From an uncultured Peptostreptococcaceae bacterium (GTDB lineage: Bacteria > Bacillota > Clostridia > Peptostreptococcales > BM714), in assembly GCA_964617505.1 (NCBI GenBank), contig CAZTZB010000006.1, forward strand, positions 2,551 to 66,550: 64,000 bases of DNA, in the 5' to 3' direction. Positions 9,718 through 43,510 of the stretch are shown here, in pieces (position 1 is the first letter of the stretch; each line of letters starts with the position of its first letter). The position numbers were made by a program, and so were the translations under genes. Below the pieces are notes generated by a model that was given only the letters and a program-made list of their open reading frames with translations, was not told the DNA's origin and did no database searches.

Positions 9718-9775
9718 CAGTTCACCTGCCTCGTTTCATTTATCTATTTCTTCTATATCAAAATATATATTCCCT

Positions 9776-10675: not shown

Positions 10676-10732
10676 TGAATCCTCCTTTACCTTAGAAAAA
10701 TGCATTCGATTCAAACTTTTGAATCCCCAATT

Positions 10733-11179
10733 TTAAGCTTCCACTACCCGCACCTTAAGTTTTGCAATAACCTCGGGATGAAGCTTGATTTCAACCTCGT
10801 GCAAACCCATTTCCTTTATGTGTCCCTCCATCATTATTTTTCTTTTATCAATAACAATCTTATGGTCTTTCTTGAGCGCCTTAGCTATATCCATCGATGT
10901 TATGGATCCAAAAAGTCTACCACCTTCTCCGGCCTTTCCCTTTACATCAATCTCAAGATTGGATAAAAGTAGTTTCATTTCCTTAGCTTGTTCAAGCAGC
11001 TCCTGTTCTCCTCTAACCTTGGCGGCTTTTTTCCTGTTAAGTACGTTAACATTGCCCTGAGTAGCCTCTTTTGCCAATCCTCTTGGCAAGAGGTAGTTTC
11101 TGGCATGCCCATCGCTGGCATTTATTATTTCCCCTTTATTTCCTGTTCCCTTTATATCCTTTAGCAATATTACCTTCAT
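10733..11179 (-). CDS. rplI: 50S ribosomal protein L9
   Basis: [19 protein letters not shown]...NYLLPRGLA is typical L9. The ATG at 11179 follows a GGAGGA RBS. Confidence 0.95.
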
Positions 11180-11181
11180 CT

Positions 11182-13173: not shown

Positions 13174-13188
13174 GCCTTCACCTCCACG

Positions 13189-14133
13189 TCAGTCTTTTTT
13201 CAATTCAAATCGTCTTATGTTAATAATGGAATCCACAAGTCCCAATATTACCGCCATTATTGAAAATGTAGGCAAAATCATGAACGTTATGCAAATCATT
13301 GCCTTGAAAAACTTTGGCAAACTGAATTTTTCCATAAAAAACATAATAACAGCAAGCCCCTGCAACAGAAACGCTATTTGAAAAAGATAAAAAACATTGA
13401 GGAAAAGCGCCTCGCCGTTTACAATATTCATGCGGGAAGCCCCATAAGAAAGCGTTATTATGACCAAAAGCCCCATCATTATATTTTTTGGCAAACTGAA
13501 TTTGCCGAATTTCCCAAGTGTTTGGAATTTGAAACCAGTTCTCCTAAGTATGATTCCTGCTACAATATAATTTATACATGCAGATCCTATGGAACCGAAA
13601 ATAAGGCTAGACGGTATCAGTGTAAGAATAGTGCTTTTCATAATCTCAAGATTTCTTATTATTTCAGCCGTGCCGCCTCCATCGCCAAGAAAGGCTTTCT
13701 GGTATTCAACAACCCCGGTAAACACTTCCTCCAATTGAAGCAGCGTATTTACTCCCATTATATATGTCGAGACGGCAAAGGTTAAAAGTATTGCCACAAG
13801 CGATGCCGCCGACCCCGCAATCAAAATATGACGCACCTCTCTGCCCTTCTTTATCATCGTCCCCATAACGGAAGCATTTATACCTGAAATCAATGCTATA
13901 TATATCCCAACTAGCGGGCTTGAAAAACTGCCAATGATTATAGATGCAGCAGTTACTGCTAGCATTGTGTGCTTAAGATCATGCCTGACCGCAACTATTA
14001 TAAATGGAACGGGTATGAAAATCATAAAGAATGATAAAAATGGTATATAAAAACCTGCGATTACAAAGATGACCGCTATTATTGAAAGCATAGCCGACTC
14101 CACAAGCGCTTTTGTGTTTTCTCCTGTATTCAA
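13189..14133 (-). CDS. yybS: YybS-family (DUF2232) polytopic membrane protein
   Basis: It is multi-TM and occupies the conserved rpsR-yybS-gdpP-rplI position. Confidence 0.7.
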   Translation of the reverse strand: MNTGENTKALVESAMLSIIAVIFVIAGFYIPFLSFFMIFIPVPFIIVAVRHDLKHTMLAVTAASIIIGSFSSPLVGIYIALISGINASVMGTMIKKGREVRHILIAGSAASLVAILLTFAVSTYIMGVNTLLQLEEVFTGVVEYQKAFLGDGGGTAEIIRNLEIMKSTILTLIPSSLIFGSIGSACINYIVAGIILRRTGFKFQTLGKFGKFSLPKNIMMGLLVIITLSYGASRMNIVNGEALFLNVFYLFQIAFLLQGLAVIMFFMEKFSLPKFFKAMICITFMILPTFSIMAVILGLVDSIINIRRFELKKD

Positions 14134-17685: not shown

Positions 17686-18804
17686 TTAGTATATGTCGAT
17701 AATTTCCATATGATTATCGTAAACCAGCATTACCCTGTCTTCCGCAAGCCAGCCTCCACCTTCAATTTCAAAATCGGATTCTATCTTTCCTTTTAGCTTT
17801 CCATTGTCATCAAATATTGCAACGGATCTCTTCATGAATACCGCACCATACTTTCCGTTGAAGGAGACCCCTGTAGATATTTCATCCAGAGCTGTTTGTT
17901 TTGAAAAAATGCCGTCGTCGCCTATTCCGAAATACAAGATATCTCCATTTATATCTTCAACTATTACTGATACATAGCCCGAATCATCAAAGTCAGCTCT
18001 GGTAAGTTTGCCTTCAAGGTCTTCTTCCCACAACACATCTCCTTCCCTGGACATAGAAAAAACTCTATTTCCCGCAAGGGCTTTCAGATTATCGCTTAGC
18101 GTAAAGAATGTTCGAAATATTATTTCACCATCATAACGATTTCCAGCAATAACAATTCCATCGAGATTGTAAAAAAGTATGCTGCTGTAGTATTTTTCGT
18201 TATCTATGCTCAATGTAGAAACCGCAATTATATTCGAAGAATCAGAAATTGCCGCATCAAGTATATAGCCCTTCGGAATTGTTATTTCCGTAATGGTCTT
18301 TCCCTTGTCGTCAATAACATCCAGAAGATTTCCCTCTTGCCCGAAATAAAGCAAAAAATTCTCGCGGTTTTGATATAGACCACCGAGTGGAAATTCCTTT
18401 TCAAGGCTGTTTACAATTTCTCCTCCGTAATTCACTCTCCATAACTTACCCTGTTCAGTATCCGCCAAAACAATGTAGGTTTCATTTGCGAACAGTCTTG
18501 GATTTTCTGCTTCAATTGTTTTTTTCCAAACCGAGCCGCCTTCCAAGTCATAAAAAGTTAAAGCTCCATTGTCATACACCGCCAGTCCTTTCCCTTTTAT
18601 GGCTATCTCCGTTGAGTTTTCTCCTATATCAATTGCATAGATTCTTACAGGTTCAAAGCTTTTCAGAAACGGTATGTCGGGCAAGCTTCCTCCTGAAATA
18701 AAATACCATGCGCCAGCAGATACTAAGACGACAAATAGCAAAAGCCGCATCCATCGAACCCTTCTTTTTTTCTTTCGTCTGGCTTTTCTTTGTTCTAGAT
18801 TCAT
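17686..18804 (-). CDS. Membrane-anchored beta-repeat protein of unknown function (resembles DUF5711 family)
   Basis: It has a basic N-terminus (RKARRKKKRR), a single TM helix, and then a repetitive beta-strand-rich ectodomain. The family assignment is from memory only. Confidence 0.5.
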   Translation of the reverse strand: MNLEQRKARRKKKRRVRWMRLLLFVVLVSAGAWYFISGGSLPDIPFLKSFEPVRIYAIDIGENSTEIAIKGKGLAVYDNGALTFYDLEGGSVWKKTIEAENPRLFANETYIVLADTEQGKLWRVNYGGEIVNSLEKEFPLGGLYQNRENFLLYFGQEGNLLDVIDDKGKTITEITIPKGYILDAAISDSSNIIAVSTLSIDNEKYYSSILFYNLDGIVIAGNRYDGEIIFRTFFTLSDNLKALAGNRVFSMSREGDVLWEEDLEGKLTRADFDDSGYVSVIVEDINGDILYFGIGDDGIFSKQTALDEISTGVSFNGKYGAVFMKRSVAIFDDNGKLKGKIESDFEIEGGGWLAEDRVMLVYDNHMEIIDIY

Positions 18805-18835
18805 AGAATCCTCCGTTCCTGATTAAGCTTCATAT

Positions 18836-19111
18836 TTACTCTCTCCATGAAATCTCTTTAGGCTTAAAGTACTTTCCGTCTCCCATGTTGTATATCCTTA
18901 TCAATTCCCTGTCAATATCCATTATGCGCAATTCCTTTATTATCAAAGAAAGTTTTTCGCCGGATGTTTTTATTGAAAGGCCACAGCTTGCGGTAATGCT
19001 GCGGGGTGTAGGTATCATTTCAATCTCAATTATCCCCTTAAGCCTTCTCTCCACCTTTATTGCCAAATGAGTAGAATCAAATGCTATCGCAATGAATCCT
19101 CCTTCTGTCAT
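18836..19111 (-). CDS. DUF3343-domain small protein (putative Se/S carrier-like)
   Basis: It is 91 aa and its start overlaps the yedF-like gene stop by 4 nt. It is the usual partner of YedF-type genes. Confidence 0.55.
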   Translation of the reverse strand: MTEGGFIAIAFDSTHLAIKVERRLKGIIEIEMIPTPRSITASCGLSIKTSGEKLSLIIKELRIMDIDRELIRIYNMGDGKYFKPKEISWRE

Positions 19112-19701
19112 ATCCTTATAACCTTGGGTGCTTCATTTATTTTTTCAACTATATCGTACATATTGCTGACAATACCTATTCCTATATTTGCTTTTTCATT
19201 AAAATAGTCCAAACATGTTCCGCAAACCAGCATTTCAACACCTTTCGCTTGTAAAACTTTCAAGTCCTTAAGTACAGTCGATTCTTTAAGAGCAAGTCTA
19301 ATTCCACCGTTTAAGAAAAGCACTGCTTTGGGAAATGGCGCTGCTTCTGTAAGTGCATAGAAGTATCCCTTCATTAAAATCTCTCCCAATTCATCGGATC
19401 CGCTTCCCATCTTGTCAGATTCAATTAATAGCACCCAGTCTCCTGTTTCATCTTTTAATAAAGATGTTTTCTGTTTTTCATCAGTTTCTCCGTTTTTCCC
19501 AATTAGCTCAAGATAGATTCCATCTTCTCTTTTTTCTTCTGAAAATGAATATCCCTTTTTATCAGCCAAACGGCTTATATTTTTGCTCGCAATATCATTG
19601 TCTACAAGCACCAGTATCTCTGTTATTCCTTCTTCCATTATTTTTTTGGTTTCTATAACTGGTGCCGGACATGCCAATCCTCTTACATCAACTTTTTTCA
19701 T
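19108..19701 (-). CDS. yedF: YedF-type sulfurtransferase-like selenium metabolism protein
   Basis: The N-terminus is TusA-like (VDVRGLACPAPVIETKK), and a DsrE-like C-terminal half contains a CGTC motif. Confidence 0.7.
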   Translation of the reverse strand: MKKVDVRGLACPAPVIETKKIMEEGITEILVLVDNDIASKNISRLADKKGYSFSEEKREDGIYLELIGKNGETDEKQKTSLLKDETGDWVLLIESDKMGSGSDELGEILMKGYFYALTEAAPFPKAVLFLNGGIRLALKESTVLKDLKVLQAKGVEMLVCGTCLDYFNEKANIGIGIVSNMYDIVEKINEAPKVIRI

Positions 19702-20597: not shown

Positions 20598-20680
20598 ATA
20601 ACAGCTCCTCATAAATGTCTCATTCTATTATATATTATGTGTTCCCTTTTTTCTAACAAGTATTTTAGAATTACCCAAGC

Positions 20681-20715
20681 AAAAAGAGCCTCGATGTGAA
20701 GAGGCTCTTTTTGTT
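20681..20715 (-). terminator. Rho-independent terminator closing the Mrp-like operon
   Basis: Minus strand reads AGAGCCTC-TTCACATC-GAGGCTCT followed by TTTTT. It lies 12 nt after the last stop codon. Confidence 0.8.
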
Positions 20716-20727
20716 TCACTTTCTATA

Positions 20728-22779
20728 TCAAGTTTTAAGGATCAAGTAGCTCAATATGCCTATCAATATTATCGCAAATATGAACAATGCATATATGATA
20801 CTATTCATGCGTCCCTGTGTTCGTGAAAAAATTTGTCCCACACTTTCTATCTCTTTCGCATAATTTTCTTTCACCTTGCCAGCCGCCGTTTTCTCTCCAA
20901 CGCTCGTCACAATGTCCTTCAATTCAATTCCTTTTCTGTCTTTCGAGACATCTTTTCCTTTGGAATCCTTTCTTTTAAAGCGCCCAACATCAATCCTTAT
21001 ATCCCCAATTCTATGAAATAATCCCTCAATGTAAATAAAGAAATTTGCAAATCCCCTGTCTACGTATTTAAATAGATGGTAGCCTCCCAAGTAAAAAGTC
21101 TTGGCCAGAGGCTTGTAAAAATCCTGCTCCAAATCCGGCCATTCGAGTGTCGGGTTCCTGTAGATTGGTCCGTCCTCCGTCTGCATAATGAGCCCTTTCC
21201 TGACTATCAAAAAGTATAGTGCCACGCCAAGCGCGAAAATTATCCCAGTGTTGTAAAAAACTTCGGATGTATAAAGATTGATGGGCACATGGCCCCTTCC
21301 TCCAAGAAACACTTCCGTTTCTTCCATTATTGAAAACATATATCCCGGTCTAATCCCCAGATAGATTGCAATTCCTGATAATGCAAATAGGGGAAAAAGC
21401 GCTCTTTTATGTATTTGGTTCTTAAACTGCCCCCAATACTTTTCGCTTTCCTCTACAAATACAGCCACGAAGATTTTTAGGAGATAAACAAGAGTAAAGC
21501 TACTGCTTATAATGAATATAATTTCCGCAACTCCCATGCCGACGCCTTCATAGATGTGCCCGGCCTCCACAAGCGCTTCATGTAGAAGATTCTTGCTAAT
21601 GAATCCACTTGAACCCGGAACTCCTGCAACGGACAAAACGCCTACAAGAAATACTGCCTTGAGTTTGTACAAATGTTTTCCAAATCCATGTATATGATTG
21701 ATTGAAAGTTCATGGAGAAGCATATATATTATGCCGGCGCCAAGGAAAAGCAAAACCTTAAAAATCGCATGGTTTACTATATGAAATAGGGTTCCATGGA
21801 TAGCTATGTTGTTGTTTGAACCAAGAATCCCTATGAGGCCCACCCCCATAAGAATATATCCAAGCTGGCTCATTGAACTATAGGCCAAAATCCGTTTGAG
21901 GTTTCTTTGAAATATAGCCAATAAGCCTCCCCAAAACATGTTTGCCAATCCCAATACGAATATCACCCTTGAAATTTCAATATCACCACCAAAAATTACA
22001 ATCGATGTAATCATTATTCCAAATATCCCTGTTTTTGCGAGTATCCCGGCCAAAACCGCCGTAGCCGGTGCCGGTGCCGCCGAATACGCCTTAGGAAGCC
22101 ATACATGAAGAGGCATCATACACGCCTTTACCCCAAAGCCTGTTATAATGAGAGCCGCAATCCCATATTTAACCGAACCCATATTGACAGCTTTGCTCTG
22201 AAGCTCAGAAATTCTAAGTGTTCCTGTATAGTCGTAGAGAAGGAAAAGTCCCATCAAGAGTATCATTCCTCCGGCTATTGCCATCGTCAAATAGGTCCTT
22301 CCGGCATCCCTGGTATATTCATCCTCATCGTGTATGATTAGAAAATATGAGGTTATTGACATGATTTCAAAATATGTGAATAGGTTCAGCATATGGTCTG
22401 AAAGAAAAATTCCCATTGTGCTGGCATATGTCAAAATGAAAAAAGCGTAATATCTATTTCTTTTTTTATATTTGATCAAGTATTGCGACGAATATATTGT
22501 CGTAAGAAACCATACCAGCGAAGTAATAGATACAAATATGTACCTAAAGGCATCCAACTTCAAAAATAGGCCCGTCCCCATAATATCGGGAATCTCAATC
22601 TCCAAGCCCTTTCCTCCTATATAAGGATATAGCAAACAAACAATAAGAAAAACTCCCCCGGTCATAATATCATTTATTATGTCCCTAAGCTTTTCACTTT
22701 TCCTTCCAATCAAAAAACCCACTGCTGCTCCAAGAAATGGAATCAACAAGATAGCTATAAGCAAGGTATTCTCTATCAT
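20728..22779 (-). CDS. NuoL/MrpA-N-like antiporter subunit with C-terminal extension, paralogue A (downstream copy)
   Basis: The core is Proton_antipo_M type (WLPKAY..AP, SSMSQLGY, HAIFKVLLF). It is followed by a charged linker of about 190 aa and a final TM helix. It is highly similar to 22873..24939 over its full length. Confidence 0.85.
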   Translation of the reverse strand: MIENTLLIAILLIPFLGAAVGFLIGRKSEKLRDIINDIMTGGVFLIVCLLYPYIGGKGLEIEIPDIMGTGLFLKLDAFRYIFVSITSLVWFLTTIYSSQYLIKYKKRNRYYAFFILTYASTMGIFLSDHMLNLFTYFEIMSITSYFLIIHDEDEYTRDAGRTYLTMAIAGGMILLMGLFLLYDYTGTLRISELQSKAVNMGSVKYGIAALIITGFGVKACMMPLHVWLPKAYSAAPAPATAVLAGILAKTGIFGIMITSIVIFGGDIEISRVIFVLGLANMFWGGLLAIFQRNLKRILAYSSMSQLGYILMGVGLIGILGSNNNIAIHGTLFHIVNHAIFKVLLFLGAGIIYMLLHELSINHIHGFGKHLYKLKAVFLVGVLSVAGVPGSSGFISKNLLHEALVEAGHIYEGVGMGVAEIIFIISSSFTLVYLLKIFVAVFVEESEKYWGQFKNQIHKRALFPLFALSGIAIYLGIRPGYMFSIMEETEVFLGGRGHVPINLYTSEVFYNTGIIFALGVALYFLIVRKGLIMQTEDGPIYRNPTLEWPDLEQDFYKPLAKTFYLGGYHLFKYVDRGFANFFIYIEGLFHRIGDIRIDVGRFKRKDSKGKDVSKDRKGIELKDIVTSVGEKTAAGKVKENYAKEIESVGQIFSRTQGRMNSIIYALFIFAIILIGILSYLILKT

Positions 22780-22860
22780 TTAAATCCTCCGATTCCCGTT
22801 AACAAAACTTCTTACGACATCTTGCACAAAATATAAAATAACATTCGGAAAAAAACCTAT
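22780..22860 (-). pseudogene. Remnant of the 3' end of the upstream mrpD-like gene (duplication junction footprint)
   Basis: The spacer between the paralogues aligns with 24940..25019. The first 15 nt are identical and a later stretch of about 50 nt is about 85% identical. It translates to FFPNVILYFVQDVVRSF, compared with the genuine C-terminus LFPNVVLHFVQDIARSLI. Confidence 0.65.
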
Positions 22861-22872
22861 TAACTTGCTATC

Positions 22873-24939
22873 TTAAGTTTTAAGAATCAGATAGCTCAAT
22901 ATGCCTATCAATATTATCGCAAATATGAACAATGCATATATGATGCTGTTCATGCGTCCCTGTGATCTGGAAAAAAATTGTCCCACACTCTCTACCTCTA
23001 CAGTGTATTTCTCCTTGATCTTTGAAATTGCAGTTTCTCCTTCAACACCGCCCACAAGGTCCCTCAATTTTATGGCGTCATTTTTCATTTCAGCAGCCTT
23101 TTCTCTACGATTGCCTATGATGGAGTCCTTTCTTTCGAATCTTTTTATGTTGATTTTTAAATTTACAATTTTATGGAAAAATAATCCGATGCCCGAAAAG
23201 AAATTTACCAATCCCCTATCTACATGTTTGAACAAGTAGTATCCTCCCCAATAAAAGGCTGCAAAAAGAGGTTTGTATAAATGCTGTTCCAAATTCGTCC
23301 AAGCTAGTGTAGGATTTTTAAATATCGGTCCTGTTTCCGTTTGTACAAGCAACCATTTTCTGACTATTATAGAGTAAATTCCAACACCAAGCGCAAATAT
23401 AATTCCAGTATTGTAGAAAACTTCCTCTGTATACATGTTAAGAGGAACATGTCCATGCCCTGAAAACATTACCTCAGCTTGGCTTATTACATCAAAAACA
23501 TACCCTGGTCTTAATCCTGTATATATTACAATTCCTGAAAGCATCATTAGTGGAAACAAGGCCCTTTTTCGTATATGCCCCTTGAACTGGCCCCAATACT
23601 TTTCGCTTTTCTCAACAAATACAGCTATGAAAATTTTCATGAGATATGCAACAGTAAAGCTGCTGCTTATAATGAAAATCCATTCAGCTGCTTTCATGCC
23701 AAAGCCTCCATAAATATGCTCCGCTTCTATCAGTGCTTCGTGCAACAGATTTTTACTTATGAATCCGCTAAAGCCCGGCATACCTATTATGGCCATAAAG
23801 CCTATTATAAACATTGCTTTCAAAAATTTCTTATTGCTTCCGAATCCACGGATATAGTTGATTGAAAGCTCATGAAGAACCATATATATTATGCCTGCGC
23901 TAAAAAAAAGCAAGACTTTAAAAATAGCATGATTGAATATATGGAAAAGGGTTCCGTGTATTGCTATGTTGTTATGCTCTCCAAGCATACCGATAAGTCC
24001 CACTCCCATAAGAATATAACCTATTTGGCTCATAGAGCTGTAGGCCAGAATTCGTTTAATGTTCCTTTGGAAAATAGCCAAAAACCCGCCCCAAAACATA
24101 TTCAACAGGCCTAAAATAAAGATGACCTTGCATAGAATAAGATCGTTTTTCATTATCACCAATACCGTCAGCATTATTCCGAAAACGCCTGTTTTCAAGA
24201 GTATCCCGGAAAGAATGGCACTTGCCGGAGCAGGCGCTGCCGGATGTGCCTTGGGAAGCCATACGTGAAGCGGTATAACCCCGGCTTTTACTCCAAATCC
24301 AATAATCATCAGCCATGCTATAATATATTTTATCTGCCCTAGCGACGCAACTTCATTCGCAAGATCGTTAATGCTTAGTGTTCCTGTATAATCAAAAAGA
24401 AGAAACAGGCCCATAAGGAGCACCATCCCTCCGGCTATTGACATCGTCAGATAAGTTTTCCCAGCGTCACGGGTATACTCATCTTCATCGTGTATTATCA
24501 GGAAATATGATGTTATTGACATGATTTCAAAAAACGTGAACAGGTTAAGCATATTGTCCGATATAAAAATACCCATGGTACTGGCATATGTCAAAATGAA
24601 AAAGGCATAATATCTATTCCTTTTTTTATATTTGATTAAATATTGTGTGGAATACATTGTAGCCAAAAACCATACCAGCGCTGTTATGAATACAAATATA
24701 TACCTAAACGCATCCAACCTGAGAAAAAGGCCTATACCCATGATGTCCGGTATCTCTATTGCTATACCTTCTCCCCCTATATATGGGTATAACAATATAA
24801 CAACAAGAAAAATTGCTCCCGTCATAATAACATTGAATATATCCCTGGATTTTTCATTTTTCCTTCCTATCCAAAACCCCACTGCAGCTCCAACAAATGG
24901 AATCAACAAGGTAGAGATAAGCAAAGCATTCTCCATCAT
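22873..24939 (-). CDS. NuoL/MrpA-N-like antiporter subunit with C-terminal extension, paralogue B (upstream copy)
   Basis: The architecture matches 20728..22779. The last 28 aa (GRMNSIIYALFIFAIILIGILSYLILKT) are identical in both copies. Confidence 0.85.
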   Translation of the reverse strand: MMENALLISTLLIPFVGAAVGFWIGRKNEKSRDIFNVIMTGAIFLVVILLYPYIGGEGIAIEIPDIMGIGLFLRLDAFRYIFVFITALVWFLATMYSTQYLIKYKKRNRYYAFFILTYASTMGIFISDNMLNLFTFFEIMSITSYFLIIHDEDEYTRDAGKTYLTMSIAGGMVLLMGLFLLFDYTGTLSINDLANEVASLGQIKYIIAWLMIIGFGVKAGVIPLHVWLPKAHPAAPAPASAILSGILLKTGVFGIMLTVLVIMKNDLILCKVIFILGLLNMFWGGFLAIFQRNIKRILAYSSMSQIGYILMGVGLIGMLGEHNNIAIHGTLFHIFNHAIFKVLLFFSAGIIYMVLHELSINYIRGFGSNKKFLKAMFIIGFMAIIGMPGFSGFISKNLLHEALIEAEHIYGGFGMKAAEWIFIISSSFTVAYLMKIFIAVFVEKSEKYWGQFKGHIRKRALFPLMMLSGIVIYTGLRPGYVFDVISQAEVMFSGHGHVPLNMYTEEVFYNTGIIFALGVGIYSIIVRKWLLVQTETGPIFKNPTLAWTNLEQHLYKPLFAAFYWGGYYLFKHVDRGLVNFFSGIGLFFHKIVNLKINIKRFERKDSIIGNRREKAAEMKNDAIKLRDLVGGVEGETAISKIKEKYTVEVESVGQFFSRSQGRMNSIIYALFIFAIILIGILSYLILKT

Positions 24940-24958
24940 ATAAATCCTCCGATTCTTG

Positions 24959-26401
24959 TCAGATTAAGCTTCTTGCGATATCTTGCACGAAATGCAAAAC
25001 AACATTCGGAAAGAGTCCTAGTGCAACAGTAATACCCGTGAGCACCACAATCGGTATGAGCATCATGAGCGGCGGTTCCTTGTTCTCAATCTCCCTATCC
25101 ATTTCTCCGGGAAAAAATGCGGCAACTACAATCGGAAGTAGATATCCAGCCGTCAAAAGCGCGCTAAGCAGAAGTATCACAACAAAAATTGCCCTGTTTT
25201 CTTGAAGCCCTCCCATTGCTAAATACCATTTGCTAACAAATCCATTTGTGGGAGGCAAGCCGATAAGAGATATCGACGCAATCGAAAAACACCCCATAGT
25301 AATGGGCATTTTCTTTCCTATGCCTCTTATTTCACCTATCGTCTTATATCCTGTCCTATACATTATTACACCGACACAAAAAAACAATGTTATTTTTATG
25401 ACTGCATGGTTTATCAAATGAAGCAAGGCGCCAGTCAAGGCATCCTCATTCAGGAGTATTATTCCAATCATTATGTATCCAAGCTGGCTAATTGTCGAAT
25501 AAGCCAAACGCTTCTTGAGATTGTCTTGATGCAAAGCAACAAATGACCCCATAAGGATTGTCAACACGATTGGTATGCTCATGTATCCCTTGATATGCAT
25601 AGCTTTAACGGCCTCTGCTCCGAAGAGATAAAAGCTTATCCTTATCAATGCGAAAATACCTGATTTTACGACTGCAACCGCGTGAAGCAAAGAGCTTACT
25701 GGCGTAGGAGCAACCATTGCTGCAGGTAGCCAGGAATGGAATGGAACCATTGCCGCCTTTACCGAAAATCCAAGAAACAAAATGACATATGCCGCCGTCA
25801 CTCGTTTTCCAACTTCAATCCCGCCTAAAACTCCACCTGGAACAAATTCCAAAGTTCCTGTAATGCTAAATAAAAGAATCATACCCAAAAGAACTAGCGT
25901 AGCTCCGCTAAAGGAATATATGAGGTATTTCTTACCGCTTGCAAGGGCTTCTTTAGTTCCGGTATGTATGACCAATGGGAAGGTAGAAAGAGTCAAGAAT
26001 TCGTAGAAAATATAGAATGTAAAGATATTTCCAGCTAAAGAAATACCAACAATTACACCTAGTGTAACAAGAAAATATGTAAAGAATTTATTTTCCTTGC
26101 CTTCATGATGCATATAATCAAATGAATAGGCCGTTGTACAGATCCATAGAAATGAAGTCATTGTAAGAAAAAGCCTGCTCATTCCATCTATCTTGAAACA
26201 TATTTCCATAAATCCATTGATTTTAAAAAGATGCATTGCCGGCGGCGCCGCAATAAGGACCGCCATGGCAAACAAGAAATTCAGGAAAACGCCCCCTAGA
26301 AGATAGACCCTCCTATACGATTCATTTTTAAATTCGATAAAATGAATTCCTCCGGCCAAGGCCATAGGAAACACAATCGGGACCAATGCTAAGAAATTCA
26401 T
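24959..26401 (-). CDS. mrpD: MrpD/NuoN-like antiporter subunit (second copy)
   Basis: Proton_antipo_M motifs are present (HSWLPAAMVAPTPVS, STISQLGY, NHAVIK). I moved the start to the ATG at 26401 after an AAGGGAG RBS; the track uses the TTG at 26419. Confidence 0.85.
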   Translation of the reverse strand: MNFLALVPIVFPMALAGGIHFIEFKNESYRRVYLLGGVFLNFLFAMAVLIAAPPAMHLFKINGFMEICFKIDGMSRLFLTMTSFLWICTTAYSFDYMHHEGKENKFFTYFLVTLGVIVGISLAGNIFTFYIFYEFLTLSTFPLVIHTGTKEALASGKKYLIYSFSGATLVLLGMILLFSITGTLEFVPGGVLGGIEVGKRVTAAYVILFLGFSVKAAMVPFHSWLPAAMVAPTPVSSLLHAVAVVKSGIFALIRISFYLFGAEAVKAMHIKGYMSIPIVLTILMGSFVALHQDNLKKRLAYSTISQLGYIMIGIILLNEDALTGALLHLINHAVIKITLFFCVGVIMYRTGYKTIGEIRGIGKKMPITMGCFSIASISLIGLPPTNGFVSKWYLAMGGLQENRAIFVVILLLSALLTAGYLLPIVVAAFFPGEMDREIENKEPPLMMLIPIVVLTGITVALGLFPNVVLHFVQDIARSLI

Positions 26402-26422
26402 CCAGTCCACTCCCTTCAATCT

Positions 26423-27904
26423 CTATTTAAGGGCGGGAATGCCCGCTTCTATTAGACTAAGAAGTCCTCCACCCGACAATCCTAAGTAAATGACACCAAG
26501 AATTAGCACAAATATCGGCAACAATTCTTTAAATGGGCGCTCTTTGTTCTTGTATACCTTGCCCTCAAGGCTTTCCTCGCCAAAATATCCGTTTATTATG
26601 ACCGGGAAATAATATAGTGCATTGAGCAAGCTACTAATCAGGACGACCGCAAGCAATTCAACCCTATGGGCTTCAATTACAGCAACCGCAAAATTCCATT
26701 TGCTGTTAAATCCCGACAATAAGGGAATTCCAACAAGCGACATGCCTCCGATTGTAAAGATTGCCATAGTAAACGGCATTTCTTTTCCTATCCCTTTTAA
26801 ATCTGCAATATTCTTCTTCCCCGTTTTTTCGATTATGCTTCCGGCAGAAAGAAAAAGGGCCGCCTTAGTAAAGGCGTGGTTGAAAATCTGGAATATAGCG
26901 GCAGCAAGACCCATGCTTGTTCCAAGTCCTATGCCGAAAAATACATAGCCAATCTGAGCAACACTTGAATATGCAACCATCCTTTTTAAATTCTTCTGCA
27001 TTATGGCCAGCACCGATCCTGCTATCATTCCCACTGCTCCCAAAAGAAGCACAATGTTCAAAACAGGCAACTCACTGACAATTCCCATTCCGAAAACCCT
27101 ATAAATTATTTTTATATACAATATTACATAAGCCTTTAGAACCAAAGCGGAAAGCAGCGCGCTTGACACCGCAGGCGCATAGGTATGAGCATCCGGAAGC
27201 CATGTGTGAAGAGGAAACATAGCGCTTTTAACCCCAAGCCCCACTGTGAAAAGTCCTATCGCAATCAGCATATTTCTGCTGTGTTCCGGATAAATGGCCG
27301 CTAAAACTTCATGGCTGCTCGCCATGTTCAGGTGTCCCGTCAATGAGTAAATAAGAGCTATTCCCATTAGTACAAGACCCGAACCTAATGAACTCAATAT
27401 CAGATATTTTAGCGCTGCCTTTATGTTTTCCTTTTTGTCTTTTATTACTACAATTCCGCATGAAGCAATTGAGCTGATTTCGATGAACACAAAACAATTG
27501 AAAAGATCGTCTGAAAAAACGATCCCAAGTAGGGCTCCTACAAGTAGATTAACAAGGGTGTAGAATAATGGCACCTTCTTTTTAGTCAAATCATGATCTA
27601 TGCTATAGATTGAAAACCAAAGAACAGCCATTGTAACAGTCATAAATAGAACAGCCATCAATCCCTCTATTATTCCTATATGGAATTCGATTCCCCATGG
27701 AGCAGCAAAATGACCCACTCTGAAATAGTATGGTCCATCCACCTTTACTCCTAAAAGTGTCCATACTGAAAGCGCAAGGGAAACTCCTGCAGCCGAAATG
27801 CCTATGATTCGAGCCATTCGAATTGTCTTGAAAAGCGGTATTGCAAAAGCTGAAATAAATAAAATCAAGATGATGATTAGCGGATAGCTATTGTAAAGTG
27901 GCAA
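26423..27904 (-). CDS. mrpD: MrpD/NuoM-like antiporter subunit (first copy)
   Basis: Proton_antipo_M motifs are present (HTWLPDAHTYAPAVSS, SSVAQIGY, NHAFTKA). It has a TTG start after a GGGAGGGG RBS. Confidence 0.85.
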   Translation of the reverse strand: MPLYNSYPLIIILILFISAFAIPLFKTIRMARIIGISAAGVSLALSVWTLLGVKVDGPYYFRVGHFAAPWGIEFHIGIIEGLMAVLFMTVTMAVLWFSIYSIDHDLTKKKVPLFYTLVNLLVGALLGIVFSDDLFNCFVFIEISSIASCGIVVIKDKKENIKAALKYLILSSLGSGLVLMGIALIYSLTGHLNMASSHEVLAAIYPEHSRNMLIAIGLFTVGLGVKSAMFPLHTWLPDAHTYAPAVSSALLSALVLKAYVILYIKIIYRVFGMGIVSELPVLNIVLLLGAVGMIAGSVLAIMQKNLKRMVAYSSVAQIGYVFFGIGLGTSMGLAAAIFQIFNHAFTKAALFLSAGSIIEKTGKKNIADLKGIGKEMPFTMAIFTIGGMSLVGIPLLSGFNSKWNFAVAVIEAHRVELLAVVLISSLLNALYYFPVIINGYFGEESLEGKVYKNKERPFKELLPIFVLILGVIYLGLSGGGLLSLIEAGIPALK

Positions 27905-27905
27905 T

Positions 27906-28265
27906 TTATTCCCCTCCCATCTTCATGATTTCGTTTAGGTCGATTGTCCCGTACTTTTCGTAAATGCGGATTGTAAGTGCCAAAGCAAAAGCCGTGATGC
28001 TTACTGCAACAACAATTCCCGTAAGCATTAGCGCCGTGGGAATCGGATTGACGTAACCTGAAGCCGATTTGGCAGACCGTATTATTGGCGCTTCATTTCC
28101 TGTAATATATCCCTTGGCTATAAAAAATAGAAAAACTGCCGTATCCATGATATTCATGCCTATTATTTTTTTAATCAGATTTCCATGAGCCAAAAGTGTT
28201 ACAAAGCCAACTCCAAACAAAATGATGGCTCCGGTTTCATAGTAATTTGTCAGCAAGTGTCCCAT
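27906..28265 (-). CDS. mrpC: MrpC/MnhC (NuoK-like) subunit
   Basis: It has three TM helices and a NuoK-like sequence (LIKKIIGMNIMDTAVFLFFIA). The ATG at 28265 lies 1 nt after the upstream stop. Confidence 0.8.
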   Translation of the reverse strand: MGHLLTNYYETGAIILFGVGFVTLLAHGNLIKKIIGMNIMDTAVFLFFIAKGYITGNEAPIIRSAKSASGYVNPIPTALMLTGIVVAVSITAFALALTIRIYEKYGTIDLNEIMKMGGE

Positions 28266-28266
28266 A

Positions 28267-28710
28267 TCAGATAGTCCCTTCGTAGAATAGTTTAAAAAAT
28301 ACATACATAGTTATCGCTACGATGATTCCAACAGCTATGTTTAGAGGCAGTATGAGCCCTCCGCTAAACAATTTTCCTGGCGTTCCGAGTGGAATATCCC
28401 AGACTTCCCAATGCATTCCGCCAGTCAAAAAACTATATCCCTTGAGCGCTCCGTAAATAAGGAGCGACGAGCACATCCATTTCATCATCCTTTCATATGT
28501 AAGCCTCGAAATAAGGTTGTCCCATCCGAAAATCAATCTATGAAGAATCATGCTTACTCCAAGAATCGTTCCTCCTGCAAACCCTCCACCTGGAGAAAGG
28601 TGCCCGTTAAATATTACGTATATGGCAAATACTTGTATAAAAGGTATAATAAGCCTTCCTACTTCTGTCAGAATATCGCTTTTTTCGGCTTCCCTTTGGA
28701 ATTTATTCAT
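28267..28710 (-). CDS. mrpB: MrpB/MnhB-domain subunit (MbhF-like)
   Basis: The GHLSPGGGFAGG motif is typical of the MnhB domain. I chose the start at 28710 (GGAGGG-N6-ATG), but 28716 is also possible. Confidence 0.75.
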   Translation of the reverse strand: MNKFQREAEKSDILTEVGRLIIPFIQVFAIYVIFNGHLSPGGGFAGGTILGVSMILHRLIFGWDNLISRLTYERMMKWMCSSLLIYGALKGYSFLTGGMHWEVWDIPLGTPGKLFSGGLILPLNIAVGIIVAITMYVFFKLFYEGTI

Positions 28711-28981
28711 CTTCATCCCTCCTGAGCACCACAATTACCGTTATTAGTGCTGTAAAAAGAACCGTCGCCTCTCCAAAGGTATCAAATGCCCTATAGTCCA
28801 AAATTATTCCGGCTACTACATTGACTGCGCCGGTCTCTTCCACGCCTTTTTCAAGGTACCTATATGATACCTCGTTATTTGAAGGATTTTCAGCCTGCCC
28901 AAAGGTAGGCAAATCAGCAACCCCGAATAGCAAAATAATAATTAATGCTGTTGCCAAAACAACAGAGAATATTTTTCTCAT
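28703..28981 (-). CDS. Small Mrp/Mbh subunit, MbhE-like (MnhB N-terminal-type segment)
   Basis: AVNVVAGIILDYRAFDTFGEATVLF is a signature shared with the MrpA C-terminus, MrpB and MbhE. It is coupled to both neighbours: its start overlaps the upstream stop by 4 nt (ATGA) and its stop overlaps the downstream start. Confidence 0.65.
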   Translation of the reverse strand: MRKIFSVVLATALIIILLFGVADLPTFGQAENPSNNEVSYRYLEKGVEETGAVNVVAGIILDYRAFDTFGEATVLFTALITVIVVLRRDEDE

Positions 28982-29217
28982 TTCCCGCCACCTCCGACTC
29001 TCCTGAGCGTAAAGACAAACAAAAGGGTTGTTATCCCCGCTCCTACAGCCGCTTCGGTGATTGCGAGATCCGGCGCATTAAGTTGCTGCCAAAGAACTGC
29101 CATCGTCAAGCTATATACCATGAATACTATGATAGCACCCAACAAATTGCGTATTACAGATACGGCAATCGATGCTCCTATTAAAAATACTATGACAATC
29201 ATTGAAAAAGTGGTCAT
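28978..29217 (-). CDS. Small Mrp/Mbh subunit, MbhD/DUF4040-like
   Basis: LNAPDLAITEAAVGAGITTLLF is a motif typical of the DUF4040 / MrpA C-terminal region. Confidence 0.6.
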   Translation of the reverse strand: MTTFSMIVIVFLIGASIAVSVIRNLLGAIIVFMVYSLTMAVLWQQLNAPDLAITEAAVGAGITTLLFVFTLRRVGGGGK

Positions 29218-29519
29218 CTGCCCTCTTCCTTTCGATGGCGATTGTAATACGCCTTGGCAATTAAATGCGTTGCGGTGGGATTAGTTATCCATAAAAATAT
29301 TATTATAAGAAGCAGCTTAAGGCTCGCATAACTTTCTCCATTGAAAATAATCGTTGCCAATAGAATAAGTACCGCGCCCAGCGTATCGCACTTTGCTGCG
29401 CTGTGTGCGCGTGTATACATGTCCGGGAGTCTCAAAATACCAATAGTTCCCACTGTGAAAAAGAAAAGTCCGCCACTTATCAGAATGATCATTATTATTT
29501 CTTTAATCAATTTGGGCAC
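29214..29519 (-). CDS. mrpG: MrpG/MnhG subunit
   Basis: GILRLPDMYTRAHSAAKCDTLG is the MnhG signature. The exact start is uncertain: GTG at 29519, TTG at 29510 or ATG at 29492. Confidence 0.8.
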   Translation of the reverse strand: MPKLIKEIIMIILISGGLFFFTVGTIGILRLPDMYTRAHSAAKCDTLGAVLILLATIIFNGESYASLKLLLIIIFLWITNPTATHLIAKAYYNRHRKEEGR

Positions 29520-29775
29520 CCCTTCCTTCTATGAAGTTGGCTATAGCCATGGACGCCACAAAGCTGATAAGCGCATATACCAATGCCACATCAAGGAAAT
29601 AGCTTTCCTTGAGAATGCATGAGACAACTGCTATTATAACGGTCGTTTTTGTCCCTATTACATTTATCGCTATTAGCCTGTCCTCTGGAGTCGGCCCTTT
29701 TACTGCTCTGACTGTGCAAAGGGTCACTGTGATCGTAAGATATATTATTGAAGCAATAAATATTTTAATCATCAT
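29503..29775 (-). CDS. mrpF: MrpF/MnhF subunit
   Basis: RAVKGPTPEDRLIAINVIGTK is the MnhF signature. I moved the start to ATGATG at 29775 after a GGTGGAGG RBS; the track start of 29877 lies inside mrpE. Confidence 0.8.
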   Translation of the reverse strand: MMIKIFIASIIYLTITVTLCTVRAVKGPTPEDRLIAINVIGTKTTVIIAVVSCILKESYFLDVALVYALISFVASMAIANFIEGRGAQID

Positions 29776-30265
29776 CGGCTTTTTCCTCCACCTTAAGTAG
29801 TAATTCTTCGAACTTTGAATGAGCAACACCCTCCACATATTCATCCATAAGACAATGGACAATAAGTCTTTTCCCATCCATATTTACGGTCAAGGTTCCT
29901 GGAGTCAGGGTTATTGAATTGGCCAATATCATTCTACTTAGCGGTTTTTCGAGACGAGTGTCAAAGCTTATTATGCTAGGGGTTATCAAGAGTTTTTTTG
30001 ATAAAACAATTTTTGCAACATGAAAATTGGCAAAAACAATTTCTTTGCATAGCAAAAGCAGATACTTAAGCAAATAAAATAATTTTTTCTTGTTTTTGAA
30101 TGAATACCCGAAATTGATTTCAAGTATGTCCACATTTATAAAAAATACAAGAAAACATATGGCAATTCCCGTCAAAACCATTTGCATATCTATGCTTTCT
30201 GTAAGAATAAGCCAAAAAACAATCATCAATATCAAATAGAATTTATTGGATTTATTCTTTTTCAT
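29765..30265 (-). CDS. mrpE: MrpE/MnhE subunit
   Basis: It has two N-terminal TM helices and a C-terminal domain with ANSITLTPGTLTV, the MnhE signature. I moved the start to the ATG at 30265 after a GGGAGGT RBS. The track start of 30319 would place the sigma-54 promoter inside the coding sequence. Confidence 0.75.
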   Translation of the reverse strand: MKKNKSNKFYLILMIVFWLILTESIDMQMVLTGIAICFLVFFINVDILEINFGYSFKNKKKLFYLLKYLLLLCKEIVFANFHVAKIVLSKKLLITPSIISFDTRLEKPLSRMILANSITLTPGTLTVNMDGKRLIVHCLMDEYVEGVAHSKFEELLLKVEEKADDD

Positions 30266-30303
30266 AGACCTTACCTCCCAAAAATTACACCTTATATGTA
30301 CAC

Positions 30304-30318
30304 GCAAATTCCGTGCCA
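30304..30318 (-). promoter_or_regulatory. Sigma-54 (-24/-12) promoter of the Mrp/Mbh-like operon
   Basis: Minus strand reads TGGCACGGAATTTGC, which is TGGCAC-N5-TTGC with consensus GG/GC spacing. It lies 39 nt upstream of the mrpE ATG. Confidence 0.8.
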
Positions 30319-30395
30319 ATTACTGCCCTTTTACAAATCTTTTTCAAACCCCTTCAATTGCAAGCTGTTCGCACCTTTTAAAAGTAAAAAAAATG

Positions 30396-30435
30396 GCAAA
30401 TCAAACCCGTCAAAATATGAAGTGTTCTGATTTGC
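30396..30435. promoter_or_regulatory. 8-bp perfect inverted repeat: candidate enhancer (UAS) for the sigma-54 activator, or a weak terminator of the activator gene
   Basis: The sequence is GCAAATCA-N24-TGATTTGC, centred about 100 bp upstream of the -24 element. On the minus strand it is followed by a T8 run. Confidence 0.4.
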
Positions 30436-30472
30436 TACATTTATTCGGCATATACCAATATGTGATGTTCTA

Positions 30473-32488
30473 TTATAACACATATGTCCCGTTACGAGTC
30501 ATATGTATTTCGTATTCCTTCATCTTTCTATAAAGAGAACTTCTGCTTATTCCTAATATTCGTGAAGTCTTTGAAAGATTTCCTTGGGTTTCCTCGATAG
30601 TTTTACTGATTGCCATGCTTTCAATTTCACGGAGAGTGAAGAATTTCTTGTTTTGGGAATTAGGCTCATCCAAAAGATTCGTCGATTTCATGTATTGTGG
30701 AATATCTTCCACCGACAAGACTTCTCCTTCTTTTACAACACTTATTATCTGTTGCATTACATTTTGAAGCTCTCTAACATTTCCAGGCCATGGATATCCG
30801 CTCATCCTCTCATAGAAGGCATCCTCTATTCCTCTTATATCCTTCCCCATTTGCCCGCTGAATTTTTCCATAAAATAAGATATGAGAGGCTTGAAGTCTT
30901 TTTTTCTTTCCCTTAGGGCTGGAATCAATATAGGCATTACATTCAATCTGTAAAAAAGATCTTCTCTGAAATTACCTTTCTCCACTTCCCCCTTTAAATC
31001 CTTGTGCGTTGCAGCTATAACACGAACATCTACCGGAATCACATCATGACCTCCAACTCGAACAACTTCCTGTGTTTCAAGTACCCTCAGAAGATTGGCC
31101 TGGGTATCTAAGGGCATATCGCCTATTTCATCAAGAAAGATTGTTCCCCCGTCAGCTAATTCAAATTTTCCTGGATGACCCCCGCGTTTTGCCCCTGTGA
31201 ATGCTCCCTCAATATATCCAAACAACTCGCTGGCAACCAAATCTCGCGGTATAGCTCCACAATTAAGGAAAATAAAGGGTTGTTTTCTTCTTGGACCGGC
31301 ATTATGAATAGACTGTGCAAAAAGCTCCTTGCCTGTTCCGCTTTCTCCCTGCAAGAGCACAGTAGTATTGTATTGGGTCATTCCTTCGGCCGTTTTAATC
31401 GCTTTTTTTATCTCTTCACTTTCTCCCATTATATCTTTAAACGTAAAACGAGCCTGTGATCCGACAATCCTGTTTACAAGATTGTGCACCGTTTTGACTT
31501 CGTGGAATGTTAATATGACGCCTTCAAGAATATCTCTGTCGATATCCTTTATGGACGCTATGGTGGCTATGCAAACAACGCGTTTGCCGTTTTTAAGTAT
31601 GAATTCCAATTCCTCATTATTATAGTGCCCCTCTGCAATGTTTTTTCCTATGCTTTTCAAGCGGTCACCAATTTTTACCATTTGCCTAATATCTTTTCCT
31701 ACAATTTCTTTTTCTGTCCTTTTAAGAATATGCCGAGCAATAAGATTGACATCTGTAATGACGCCTTCATTGTCAATACAGATCAATCCTTCATTAATTT
31801 GCTCGATTATTGTTGAAAAATGATGGTTGGCAATCCTAAGCTGCCTATTTATCTTGTCAATTTTAAACTGCTTTTCAATAGCGACACTCGACGCCACAAC
31901 CATACCAAGTGTATGAAGATGCACCTTTTCGTAGGAGTCGGTCATGCTTAGTATTCCAAGCAATTCACCTTCCGCGTTTTTTATCGGACATGCCGAAGAG
32001 GTAAATTTATGGTACCTTTTGGCATAATGCTCGGCTGCAAACACCTGTATTGGCTTCCTCGTATCCAATGCTATTCCAATGGCATTGGTCCCAATAGTCT
32101 CTTCTTTCACATTATAGCCCTTATAAAGATTCAACTTTTTATATGCCTCAACCGAATCCTCATCTCCAAGACATTCCACAACGTATCCTTCCGGATCCGT
32201 AAGCCTGACCAAGAGGCCATGACTGCCCGCAATATTGTAGAGACTTTCCATAAATGGCTTGGCAATCCTAAGAAGTGGACGAAGCTGAAGCTCCCTGTCC
32301 TTAAGGGTTTTCGATTTTGAGTTTTCTTCTCCTTCCCCCATGGGATTGACCTGTTCTTTACGACTTCTGATCCAAGAATCGGCTATTTCTTTCCGTATTA
32401 TGTCATGATTTATGTCTCCACTTTCCATGAATTTTCGCCAAGCATCCTGGATTTGATTATTCCTATCATAAATCTTATTTACTGGCAT
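30473..32488 (-). CDS. Sigma-54-dependent transcriptional activator (bEBP) with AcoR-like N-terminal sensory region and PAS domain
   Basis: The AAA+ sigma-54 interaction domain has GESGTGKE (Walker A), the GAFTGA loop, FLDEIGDM and RVIAAT. The C-terminus is a Fis-type HTH (GNLSKTSRILGISRSSLYRKMKEY). Confidence 0.9.
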   Translation of the reverse strand: MPVNKIYDRNNQIQDAWRKFMESGDINHDIIRKEIADSWIRSRKEQVNPMGEGEENSKSKTLKDRELQLRPLLRIAKPFMESLYNIAGSHGLLVRLTDPEGYVVECLGDEDSVEAYKKLNLYKGYNVKEETIGTNAIGIALDTRKPIQVFAAEHYAKRYHKFTSSACPIKNAEGELLGILSMTDSYEKVHLHTLGMVVASSVAIEKQFKIDKINRQLRIANHHFSTIIEQINEGLICIDNEGVITDVNLIARHILKRTEKEIVGKDIRQMVKIGDRLKSIGKNIAEGHYNNEELEFILKNGKRVVCIATIASIKDIDRDILEGVILTFHEVKTVHNLVNRIVGSQARFTFKDIMGESEEIKKAIKTAEGMTQYNTTVLLQGESGTGKELFAQSIHNAGPRRKQPFIFLNCGAIPRDLVASELFGYIEGAFTGAKRGGHPGKFELADGGTIFLDEIGDMPLDTQANLLRVLETQEVVRVGGHDVIPVDVRVIAATHKDLKGEVEKGNFREDLFYRLNVMPILIPALRERKKDFKPLISYFMEKFSGQMGKDIRGIEDAFYERMSGYPWPGNVRELQNVMQQIISVVKEGEVLSVEDIPQYMKSTNLLDEPNSQNKKFFTLREIESMAISKTIEETQGNLSKTSRILGISRSSLYRKMKEYEIHMTRNGTYVL

Positions 32489-40895: not shown

Positions 40896-41114
40896 TTATT
40901 TTAAAGGATCATACCCTCCCGGATGAAAGGGATGACATCTCAATATTCTTTTTATTCCTATATATGTTCCCTTTATTGCCCCGTATTTTTCTAATGCCTC
41001 TATTGTATATTGTGAACATGTTGGTATATACCGGCAACTTTTAGGCAAGAATGGAGAAATTGCTTTCTGATAAAATTCAACTATTTTTATTAAAATTTCT
41101 TTCATGCTAAACAC
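40896..41114 (-). CDS. yidD: Membrane protein insertion efficiency factor YidD
   Basis: [22 protein letters not shown]...[15 protein letters not shown] matches YidD. Confidence 0.85.
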
Positions 41115-41442: not shown

Positions 41443-41470
41443 TTTCCGCTCCTCGAAACGCCGTTTACAG

Positions 41471-41636: not shown

Positions 41637-41711
41637 TTGAAACACCTCCTCAGCTTGCCCTGTATATATAATTTGAGTCCTTAATATTCTTTTCCGACTC
41701 TGCGCTTAGTA

Positions 41712-43498: not shown

Positions 43499-43510
43499 TT
43501 GCTAAAATCC

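Follow-up and report, generated by a model that had tools for sequence, protein, structure and literature searches.

Does an operon that codes for four antiporter-like subunits specify one complex with four proton modules, or alternative forms of a shorter one? The question is raised by eleven genes lying between positions 20,728 and 30,265 of a 64,000-nucleotide stretch of DNA (hereafter the window) from contig CAZTZB010000006.1 of an uncultured Peptostreptococcaceae bacterium. The ion-pumping arms of complex I and of the MBH and MBS complexes are regarded as descended from Mrp systems, to which these genes are related. To our knowledge, every Mrp structure solved so far contains two antiporter-like modules. 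Our preferred reading, which we hold tentatively, is that these genes form a stand-alone operon for a cation/proton antiporter of the Mrp type (CPA3), irregularly organised as in Group 3, and that each complex takes up one of two isoforms of a large terminal subunit. The base complex is a canonical Mrp, except that MrpA is split and a further MrpD-like module brings the proton modules to three. This Clostridial type of Mrp is widespread and so far uncharacterised, and its terminal subunit is duplicated in the genome studied here.

A single operon contains every type of Mrp subunit

The list of open reading frames (ORFs) and Pfam profile searches revealed eleven co-directional, tightly packed genes that run from 30265 to 20728 on the minus strand, and all eleven products matched their Pfam families above the gathering score. 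In the direction of transcription their order is E-F-G-MbhD-MbhE-B-C-D-D-L-L, where single letters denote Mrp subunits and L denotes a large subunit of the MrpA-N/NuoL type; the two MrpD-like proteins are called D1 and D2, and the two large ones L1 and L2. All of the Mrp/CPA3 domain types were found (MrpA-N, MrpA-C, B, C, D, E, F and G), and NCBIfam alignments agree. Consecutive genes either overlap or are separated by at most 93 nt, with one sigma-54 promoter at the 5′ end and a strong terminator at the 3′ end (RNA fold of −23.7 kcal/mol, z = −3.25), as befits a single operon. The largest gap, between L1 and L2, harbours no terminator-like structure, and its predicted RNA fold is indistinguishable from that of shuffled sequences (z = −0.6).

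The charged residues of the proton channels are intact. E138, K218, H225, K249, H337, K341 and K396 (L1 numbering) are kept in all four antiporter-like proteins and align with their counterparts in MbhH and MrpD. In D1, the set comprises Glu-TM5, Lys-TM7, Lys-TM8, His/Lys-TM11 and Lys-TM12 (TM, transmembrane helix), and the charged residues of D2 are likewise conserved. The residues that define Mrp antiporters (TM5 Glu, TM7 Lys, TM8 Lys/His, TM11 His/Lys and TM12 Lys) are all there, and all four proton modules look functional.

No NuoH-, NuoB-, NuoD-, NuoI- or hydrogenase-like gene was found among the ORFs scanned in the window, and no redox module lies within about 10 kb of the cluster in Clostridium tetani, Fusibacter ferrireducens, Crassaminicella indica, Petroclostridium sp. 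X23 or Clostridium tetanomorphum. Judged from sequence, every testable defining feature of an Mrp/CPA3 antiporter is present. Much of the original prediction, which was made from the letters of the window, was reproduced by these searches: the subunit families, their order and strand, four intact antiporter-like genes, the lack of a linked redox module, and an enhancer-binding protein (EBP) gene and a hairpin terminator as upstream and downstream borders of the block. The same holds for two further points taken up below, a first set of eight genes ordered as in MBH and an MrpA whose C-terminal part is encoded by separate small proteins.

MrpA is divided among three genes

MrpA's C-terminal domain is encoded separately, because in NCBIfam alignments the 79-aa MbhD-like protein covers residues ~600-700 of full-length MrpA models and the 92-aa MbhE-like protein residues ~685-795. 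By this mapping, the former corresponds to the first half and the latter to the second half of the domain. Among solved structures, the two small proteins best match subunits D and E of Pyrococcus furiosus MBH and MBS (6cfw_D/E and 6u8y_D/E), and together with the MrpB protein they match the Pfam families MbhD, MbhE and MnhB, the homologies that had been proposed for them. With subunit equivalences taken from the literature (PMC7419157, PMC8415708), the first eight genes are colinear with mbhA-H, and the order of Pfam families agrees. Glu55 of the MbhD-like protein, within APDLAITEAAVG, aligns with Glu69 of P. furiosus MbhD, the homologue of E706, which Steiner and Sazanov linked to Na+ coordination (PMC7419157). 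The acidic residue of the Na+ site proposed for the MrpA-C/MbhD subunit is thus present.

Both L proteins combine a 14-helix antiporter core, nearest by sequence to MbhH and MrpD, with a tail of about 200 residues made of TM15, an amphipathic helix, a variable charged stretch and a terminal TM16. An AlphaFold2 model of L1 (pTM 0.80; predicted local distance difference test, pLDDT, mostly >85 in the core) placed TM15 at residues 505-530, followed by a short β-hairpin, a helix of 43 residues (550-592; pLDDT ~55-66) in which the hydrophobic moment is the highest of the tail (peak at 567-590), a low-confidence stretch and a terminal TM at 665-687 (660-688 at its widest). Foldseek searches with this model returned MrpA chains first (613-618 aligned columns, TMq 0.68-0.74), ahead of MrpD (~520 aligned columns, TMq 0.64-0.65); in these searches and those with the homologue below, full-length matches to MrpA, NdhF and NuoL outranked MrpD. 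For a minimal homologue from C. indica (P0058, 624 aa), the model contains TM15, a helix at 547-589 and TM16 at 603-623, and superposes on MrpA with a TMq of 0.82 over its whole length, against 0.72-0.77 for NuoL/NdhF and 0.70-0.72 for MrpD. Because the predicted structures fit MrpA/NuoL better than MrpD, we regard L as the N-terminal part of the split MrpA; on these models, it is the MrpA N-terminal domain, encoded by a gene of its own at the operon's end. A homologue in C. tetani was annotated shaA/mrpA in older work (PMC2764116), which points to the same identity.

A family alignment resolved the linker between TM15 and TM16 into a conserved part, made of the β-hairpin and the helix of ~43 residues, and a hypervariable insert of ~0-90 residues depending on the homologue. 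The conserved part carries a Y-x-NPSL-x-W-x-x-LE motif ahead of the helix and IDRG-x-x-N at its end. The charged insert is absent from P0058 and spans tens of residues in other homologues; it may serve as a spacer or form a cytoplasmic loop. The core, helix and terminal TM described earlier for the large subunits thus stand (AlphaFold2, hydrophobic moment), and the NuoL/MrpA-N plan is recovered from topology and predicted-structure superposition rather than from sequence, while the charged linker of about 110 aa is replaced by hairpin, helix and variable insert. In some homologues, the insert (residues ~597-650 of L1) consists of tandem short Lys-rich repeats such as NIKVKKP ('IKVKKP' runs).

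The conserved Clostridial layout has one L gene

We retrieved sixteen related genomic loci and mapped them by tblastn, using public gene calls for Petroclostridium and C. tetanomorphum. The ten-gene order E-F-G-MbhD-MbhE-B-C-D-D-L, with a single L gene, was found in the closest metagenome-assembled genomes (loci L002-L005), in a Clostridiales metagenome-assembled genome (L008), in Sedimentibacter, C. tetani and Brassicibacter, and also in Petroclostridium and C. tetanomorphum. Two L genes are present here and in metagenomic relatives that are 86-88% identical; Marinisporobacter, Crassaminicella and some Clostridium contigs have two as well. The tandem pairs fall in three separate clades of a neighbour-joining tree, and the pair is retained across genera in the Crassaminicella/Marinisporobacter clade. 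The conserved layout, which is widespread in Clostridia, therefore consists of ten genes with three antiporter-like subunits, and the fourth subunit is a lineage-specific tandem duplicate. The single four-module complex that the original prediction drew from the eleven genes is not supported as stated by this phylogenetic profile, in which the conserved form has ten genes.

L1 and L2 share 71% amino acid identity, and the duplicated unit takes in the ribosome-binding site. The last 28 codons of L2 (20728-20815) and of L1 (22873-22960) are identical at the amino acid level and 94% identical at the nucleotide level, compared with ~70% elsewhere, suggesting that gene conversion has acted between the tandem copies at their 3′ ends. 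Unusually similar patches were also seen near codons 1-30 and 421-450. Both paralogues are under purifying selection (ratio of non-synonymous to synonymous substitution rates, dN/dS, of 0.03-0.14), with dS near saturation. We also considered L2 as a decaying pseudogene and rejected this on account of its full length, its complete channel residues and its dN/dS of 0.05-0.14.

Among the nearest relatives, the sole L gene is of type 1, like L1, in L003 and L005 (assigned from the L sequence in L005), and of type 2, like L2, in L002 and L004. L proteins are 78-91% identical within a type and ~70% identical between types, while D1 is 94-96% and D2 86-90% identical among L001-L004. Since near relatives that scarcely differ in their D subunits each have just one of the two types, either type must be sufficient alone, and the two types are interchangeable in the same slot among these relatives. 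The linkers of L paralogues differ little in length, with 146 and 141 residues in the pair studied here and with 120 versus 116-118 or 134 versus 130 in most of the others. Larger differences were seen in two pairs (120 versus 84 in C. indica, and 128 versus 113), and no consistent extension that would signal a longer complex was observed among the pairs compared. Insertions of 26 residues in the lateral helix have been reported where complex I gains a pumping subunit (PMC9040806).

In Fusibacter and its relatives (L011-L015), the system is split, for example at 630-4862 (minus strand) and 8397-13206 (plus strand) of L013. An E-F-G-(MbhD/E)-B-C-D cluster resembling that of P. furiosus, with one antiporter-like subunit of 537 aa, lies ~3.5 kb from a divergently oriented D-D-L trio, which makes four antiporter-like genes per neighbourhood. 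Genes for an M42 peptidase, a thioredoxin-like and a DsbD-like protein are found between the two clusters.

One or two L subunits per complex

We favour one L per complex because relatives carry a single type, the linkers are of nearly equal length and no helix insertion is seen. L1 and L2 also share an identical TM16 anchor, and neither shows a helix-length adaptation like that of complex I with an added pumping subunit (PMC9040806). The proposal of a single complex with four modules and two lateral helices is accordingly not supported in that form: the second large gene is a tandem duplicate of a subunit that close relatives use singly, in either type. Under our preferred reading, the operon would be transcribed from its sigma-54 promoter under a dedicated GAF-PAS enhancer-binding protein. 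MrpE, MrpF, MrpG, MrpB, MrpC and the split MrpA C-terminal domain (MbhD-like plus MbhE-like) would form the ion-translocation end, and D1, D2 and a terminal L would form the proton-translocation end, with three modules where characterised Mrp complexes have two (MrpA-N and MrpD). TM15, the lateral helix and TM16 of L would clamp the neighbouring subunit. By analogy with solved Mrp structures, protons would enter by way of the Glu/Lys/His chains in every antiporter-like subunit, and a charge wave would expel Na+ (or K+) via the MbhD/MrpF/MrpG region. With its additional proton module, the complex would probably have a higher H+ per Na+ ratio, and the incorporation of one L of either type would yield two isoforms of a three-module complex.

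Several observations weigh against this reading. The model of the lateral helix is of moderate confidence (pLDDT ~55-74), and TM16 scores <50. A profile of the tail (alignment A2) retrieved no solved lateral helix from all PDB sequences, giving chance matches at E ≥0.27, so the lateral-helix assignment is based on topology and the predicted fold. Co-transcription of L1 and L2, with the same ribosome-binding site sequence and no terminator between them, is unusual for alternative isoforms and fits co-assembly. The duplication of L has recurred in three clades, with both copies kept under purifying selection, and tandem pairs have long persisted in other clades. Finally, we found no published biochemical or structural study of this type of cluster in the searchable literature.

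A possible, though somewhat less likely, alternative is a single complex that holds both L subunits one behind the other (L2-L1-D2-D1-(C, MbhD/E, B)-(E, F, G)). It would have four modules and two lateral helices, each of which would clamp the next subunit, and would move up to four H+ per cycle. Co-transcription with identical ribosome-binding sites, the integrity of both copies (full length, channel residues, purifying selection), the occurrence of tandem pairs in three clades with retention across genera in one of them, and the co-location of four antiporter-like genes in Fusibacter all argue for such an arrangement, and some genomes are known to encode complex I homologues with four or five pumping subunits (PMC9040806). 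However, the fourth module is dispensable, since close relatives do well with either type alone, and L1 and L2 have identical TM16 anchors and equal linkers yet would have to dock on different neighbours (L and D2, only 29% identical). We know of no solved member of the complex I/Mrp superfamily with two lateral-helix subunits in one arm. If L1 and L2 are in series, two lateral helices would be daisy-chained along the arm, a geometry unseen in the solved superfamily, the arm would have been lengthened simply by duplicating its terminal subunit, and the H+/Na+ ratio would be correspondingly higher.

That the extra L copy acts outside the Mrp complex as a single-subunit cation/proton antiporter is improbable. 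There is a precedent in the lone MrpA-like nt-Nha of Natranaerobius thermophilus, 35% identical to C. tetani shaA/mrpA, which lies outside an operon and is treated as a mono-subunit antiporter (PMC2764116), and the channel residues of L2 are complete; however, L2 keeps the lateral helix and has a TM16 identical to the anchor of L1, features that make sense only for docking on a neighbour, it lies inside the operon, and a type-2 protein is the sole L of related ten-gene clusters. Least probable of all is a membrane arm of a Hyf-, Mbh- or Mbs-type respiratory complex with its redox module elsewhere in the genome: although the gene order is colinear with mbhA-H (PMC7419157, PMC8415708) and the top NCBIfam match of L is HyfB, that match falls far short of the cut-off, no NuoH/MbhM-, NuoB-, NuoD- or NuoI-like gene was found in the scanned ORFs of the window or in the 10 kb around the cluster in the five relatives, and the MrpA-N domain, replaced by the hydrogenase module in MBH (PMC8415708), is present here. 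We rejected the identity of L as hydrogenase-4 component B (HyfB, NF005086) since it scored 265 bits, below the NCBIfam equivalog cut-off of 667, and for the same reason the labels 'hydrogenase-4 component B' in Joint Genome Institute (JGI) records are unsupported.

With a single L, the Clostridial type already has the module count of the complex I arm without any redox module, and some lineages repeatedly gain another lateral-helix subunit. Variants with three or four modules, and with type 1 or type 2, form a natural series in which one could test how module number sets the H+/Na+ stoichiometry and whether the lateral helix does no more than clamp passively. For those who study Mrp and complex I, the moderate interest of the system would lie mainly in these tests of lateral-helix function and of the number of modules.

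Comparison with known Mrp systems and related complexes

Structures have been solved for Group 1/2 Mrp antiporters (Anoxybacillus flavithermus 6z16, Bacillus pseudofirmus 7qru and Dietzia 7d3u), which have the same domain types. Like them, the system described here stands alone without a redox module, has the same charged residues in its antiporter-like subunits and includes a subunit, L, that superposes best on MrpA. Unlike them, it has an EFG-first order, an MrpA distributed over three genes (L at the operon end, MbhD-like and MbhE-like), an extra MrpD-like subunit, a second L in this genome, and control by sigma-54 and an EBP. It thus falls outside Group 1/2, the members of which are organised as mrpABCDEFG or mrpA'CDEFG with a single two-domain MrpA and an A-to-G order. 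Group 3 clusters (cyanobacterial mrpCD1D2EFGAB; Microbacterium TS-1 mrpFGBCDDAE; PMC5703873, PMC8415708) are characterised, as here, by an irregular order, no canonical full-length mrpA and several mrpD-like genes. The order found here differs from those of both the cyanobacterial and the Microbacterium TS-1 clusters, and although the cluster has the features of Group 3, this group is so loosely defined that membership says little. In the literature on Group 3 (PMC5703873, PMC8415708), the Aphanothece cluster tested for Na+/H+ antiport contains two mrpD genes by its published gene names, and Ito et al. described anaerobes having markedly different clusters with three mrpB-like genes. The latter would match MbhD, MbhE and MnhB here.

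The stand-alone Mrp of P. furiosus (mrpEFGBB'CD) and the Mrp modules of MBH and MBS (mbhA-H) share the order of the first eight genes, and also possess small subunits of the MbhD and MbhE types (PMC8415708). MBS, too, has an MrpA-N-like subunit with TM15-16 that is a separate protein, MbsH' (PMC8415708), which Foldseek matched to L (6u8y_X, TMq 0.66-0.70). In contrast, P. furiosus Mrp has one antiporter-like subunit and no MrpA-N, and MBH and MBS carry the MbhJKLMN redox module. Although the Mrp-like module is colinear with theirs, the cluster is not an MBH/MBS-type complex because the linked MbhJ-N module (NuoB-, NuoC-, NuoD-, NuoH- and NuoI-like) is missing.

The complex I arm (NuoL-NuoM-NuoN-NuoK-NuoJ) has the same module count as the base complex, namely one lateral-helix and two antiporter-like subunits, and includes homologues of MrpC (NuoK) and MrpA-C (NuoJ). 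The system described here differs in lacking NuoH, NuoA and the Q and N modules, and in possessing MrpE, MrpF, MrpG and MrpB. In the 2M, 'green' and Manganitrophus variants of complex I, duplication has led to four or five pumping subunits (PMC9040806); unlike in these, the subunit added here is a second one of the lateral-helix type rather than of the NuoM/MrpD type, and there is no matching lateral-helix insertion. We found no description of the E-F-G-MbhD-MbhE-B-C-D-D-L(-L) layout or of a duplicated lateral-helix subunit in the literature searched.

A conserved sigma-54 promoter accompanies the adjacent EBP gene

A GAF-PAS EBP gene with an AAA+ domain precedes the operon, separated from it by a terminator of its own (RNA fold of −17.6 kcal/mol, z = −2.5). 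Orthologues lie directly upstream of the cluster in L001, L003, L004, L006-L008, L016, L019 and L020, and the gene is kept beside the cluster in Crassaminicella and Petroclostridium. The −24/−12 element in front of mrpE is the sole match in the window when one mismatch is allowed. A search of the related loci for the exact TGGCAC-N5-TTGC form gave no match; the relaxed form TGGCAT-N5-TTGC revealed a conserved promoter, found at the same position in all seven of the examined loci that carry the EBP gene upstream and absent from the C. tetani and Sedimentibacter loci, both of which lack this gene. The EBP is presumed, from this linkage, to be the activator of the mrp operon. A published reconstruction of the sigma-54 regulon in Clostridiales makes no mention of Mrp (PMC6615313), and we found no description of sigma-54 control of mrp in the literature searched. 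Control by sigma-54 and the EBP would add ion homeostasis to the sigma-54 processes of Clostridia.

Features of the operon and its surroundings

The coordinates of the operon and its control elements are given in the table. The start of mrpF is placed at Met35 of its ORF, as NCBIfam alignments begin at ORF residues 36-38 and orthologues are 88-90 aa long. For mrpC, the top NCBIfam models are MrpC, and alignments of relatives begin at residue 13-14.

Table. Features of the mrp operon and its control region (window coordinates)
Feature	Coordinates	Strand	Details
Sigma-54 enhancer-binding protein gene	30473..32488	-	GAF-PAS-AAA+-HTH_8; Pfam Sigma54_activat, AAA_lid_14, HTH_8, PAS, GAF
Terminator between EBP gene and mrp operon	30385..30440	-	Hairpin, then U8 run UUUUUUUU
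Sigma-54 -24/-12 promoter	30303..30318	-	TGGCACggaatTTGCg (TGGCAC-N5-TTGC), 37 nt upstream of the mrpE start codon
mrpE	29765..30265	-	166 aa from ATG at 30265, GGGAGG before start; Pfam MNHE 111.6 bits
mrpF	29503..29775	-	~90 aa; Pfam MrpF_PhaF 64.7 bits
mrpG	29214..29519	-	101 aa, GTG start; Pfam PhaG_MnhG_YufB 104.2 bits
MbhD-like subunit	28978..29217	-	79 aa; Pfam MbhD 74 bits
MbhE-like subunit	28703..28981	-	92 aa; Pfam MbhE 48.8 bits
mrpB	28267..28716	-	~149 aa; Pfam MnhB 87 bits; start uncertain (28734, 28716 or 28710)
mrpC	27906..28265	-	~119 aa from Met14, ORF reaching 28304; Pfam Oxidored_q2 (MrpC/NuoK type) 79.6 bits
D1, MrpD/MbhH-like antiporter-like subunit	26423..27904	-	493 aa; Proton_antipo_M 218.6 bits
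D2, second MrpD-like subunit	24959..26401	-	480 aa by public gene call, ORF reaching 26419 (486 aa); Proton_antipo_M 222.9 bits, Proton_antipo_N 27.2 bits
L1, MrpA-N/NuoL-type subunit, type 1	22873..24939	-	688 aa; Proton_antipo_M; AlphaFold2 model; Foldseek
L1-L2 spacer	22780..22872	-	Duplicated ribosome-binding site AATCGGAGGATTTA; sequence matches the D2-L1 junction
L2, tandem paralogue of L1, type 2	20728..22779	-	683 aa; Proton_antipo_M
Intrinsic terminator closing the operon	20677..20716	.	Hairpin stem of 13-16 bp, then U run; terminator scan

Upstream of the operon, the EBP gene is followed by parB and parA. Downstream, Pfam identified genes for a YegS-type lipid kinase, a TusA-DsrE protein, a Se/S carrier-like protein, DUF5711 and CvpA. 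Directly past the kinase gene (17686-19701, minus strand) lies a small sulfur/selenium-handling set, with the TusA-DsrE fusion of 197 aa, the Se/S carrier-like protein of 91 aa and the DUF5711 protein of 372 aa; no link of this set to the antiporter was seen in relatives. At 61830-63020 on the plus strand, a 396-aa ORF with no Pfam match at E ≤ 1e-5 adjoins a PucR-type GAF regulator gene (59847-61691, minus strand). The other large window ORFs scanned are housekeeping genes around the chromosomal origin (dnaA at 42131, dnaN, recF, gyrB, gyrA, mnmG, mnmE, yidC and dnaB). The replication origin region spans ~41000-50730, with a sign change of the GC skew near 42-44 kb; dnaA, dnaN, recF, gyrB and gyrA lie on its plus strand, and yidC, jag, mnmE, mnmG, a second ParB-like gene, parA and parB on its minus strand. 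The mrp operon is located ~12-21 kb from dnaA and is co-oriented with replication.

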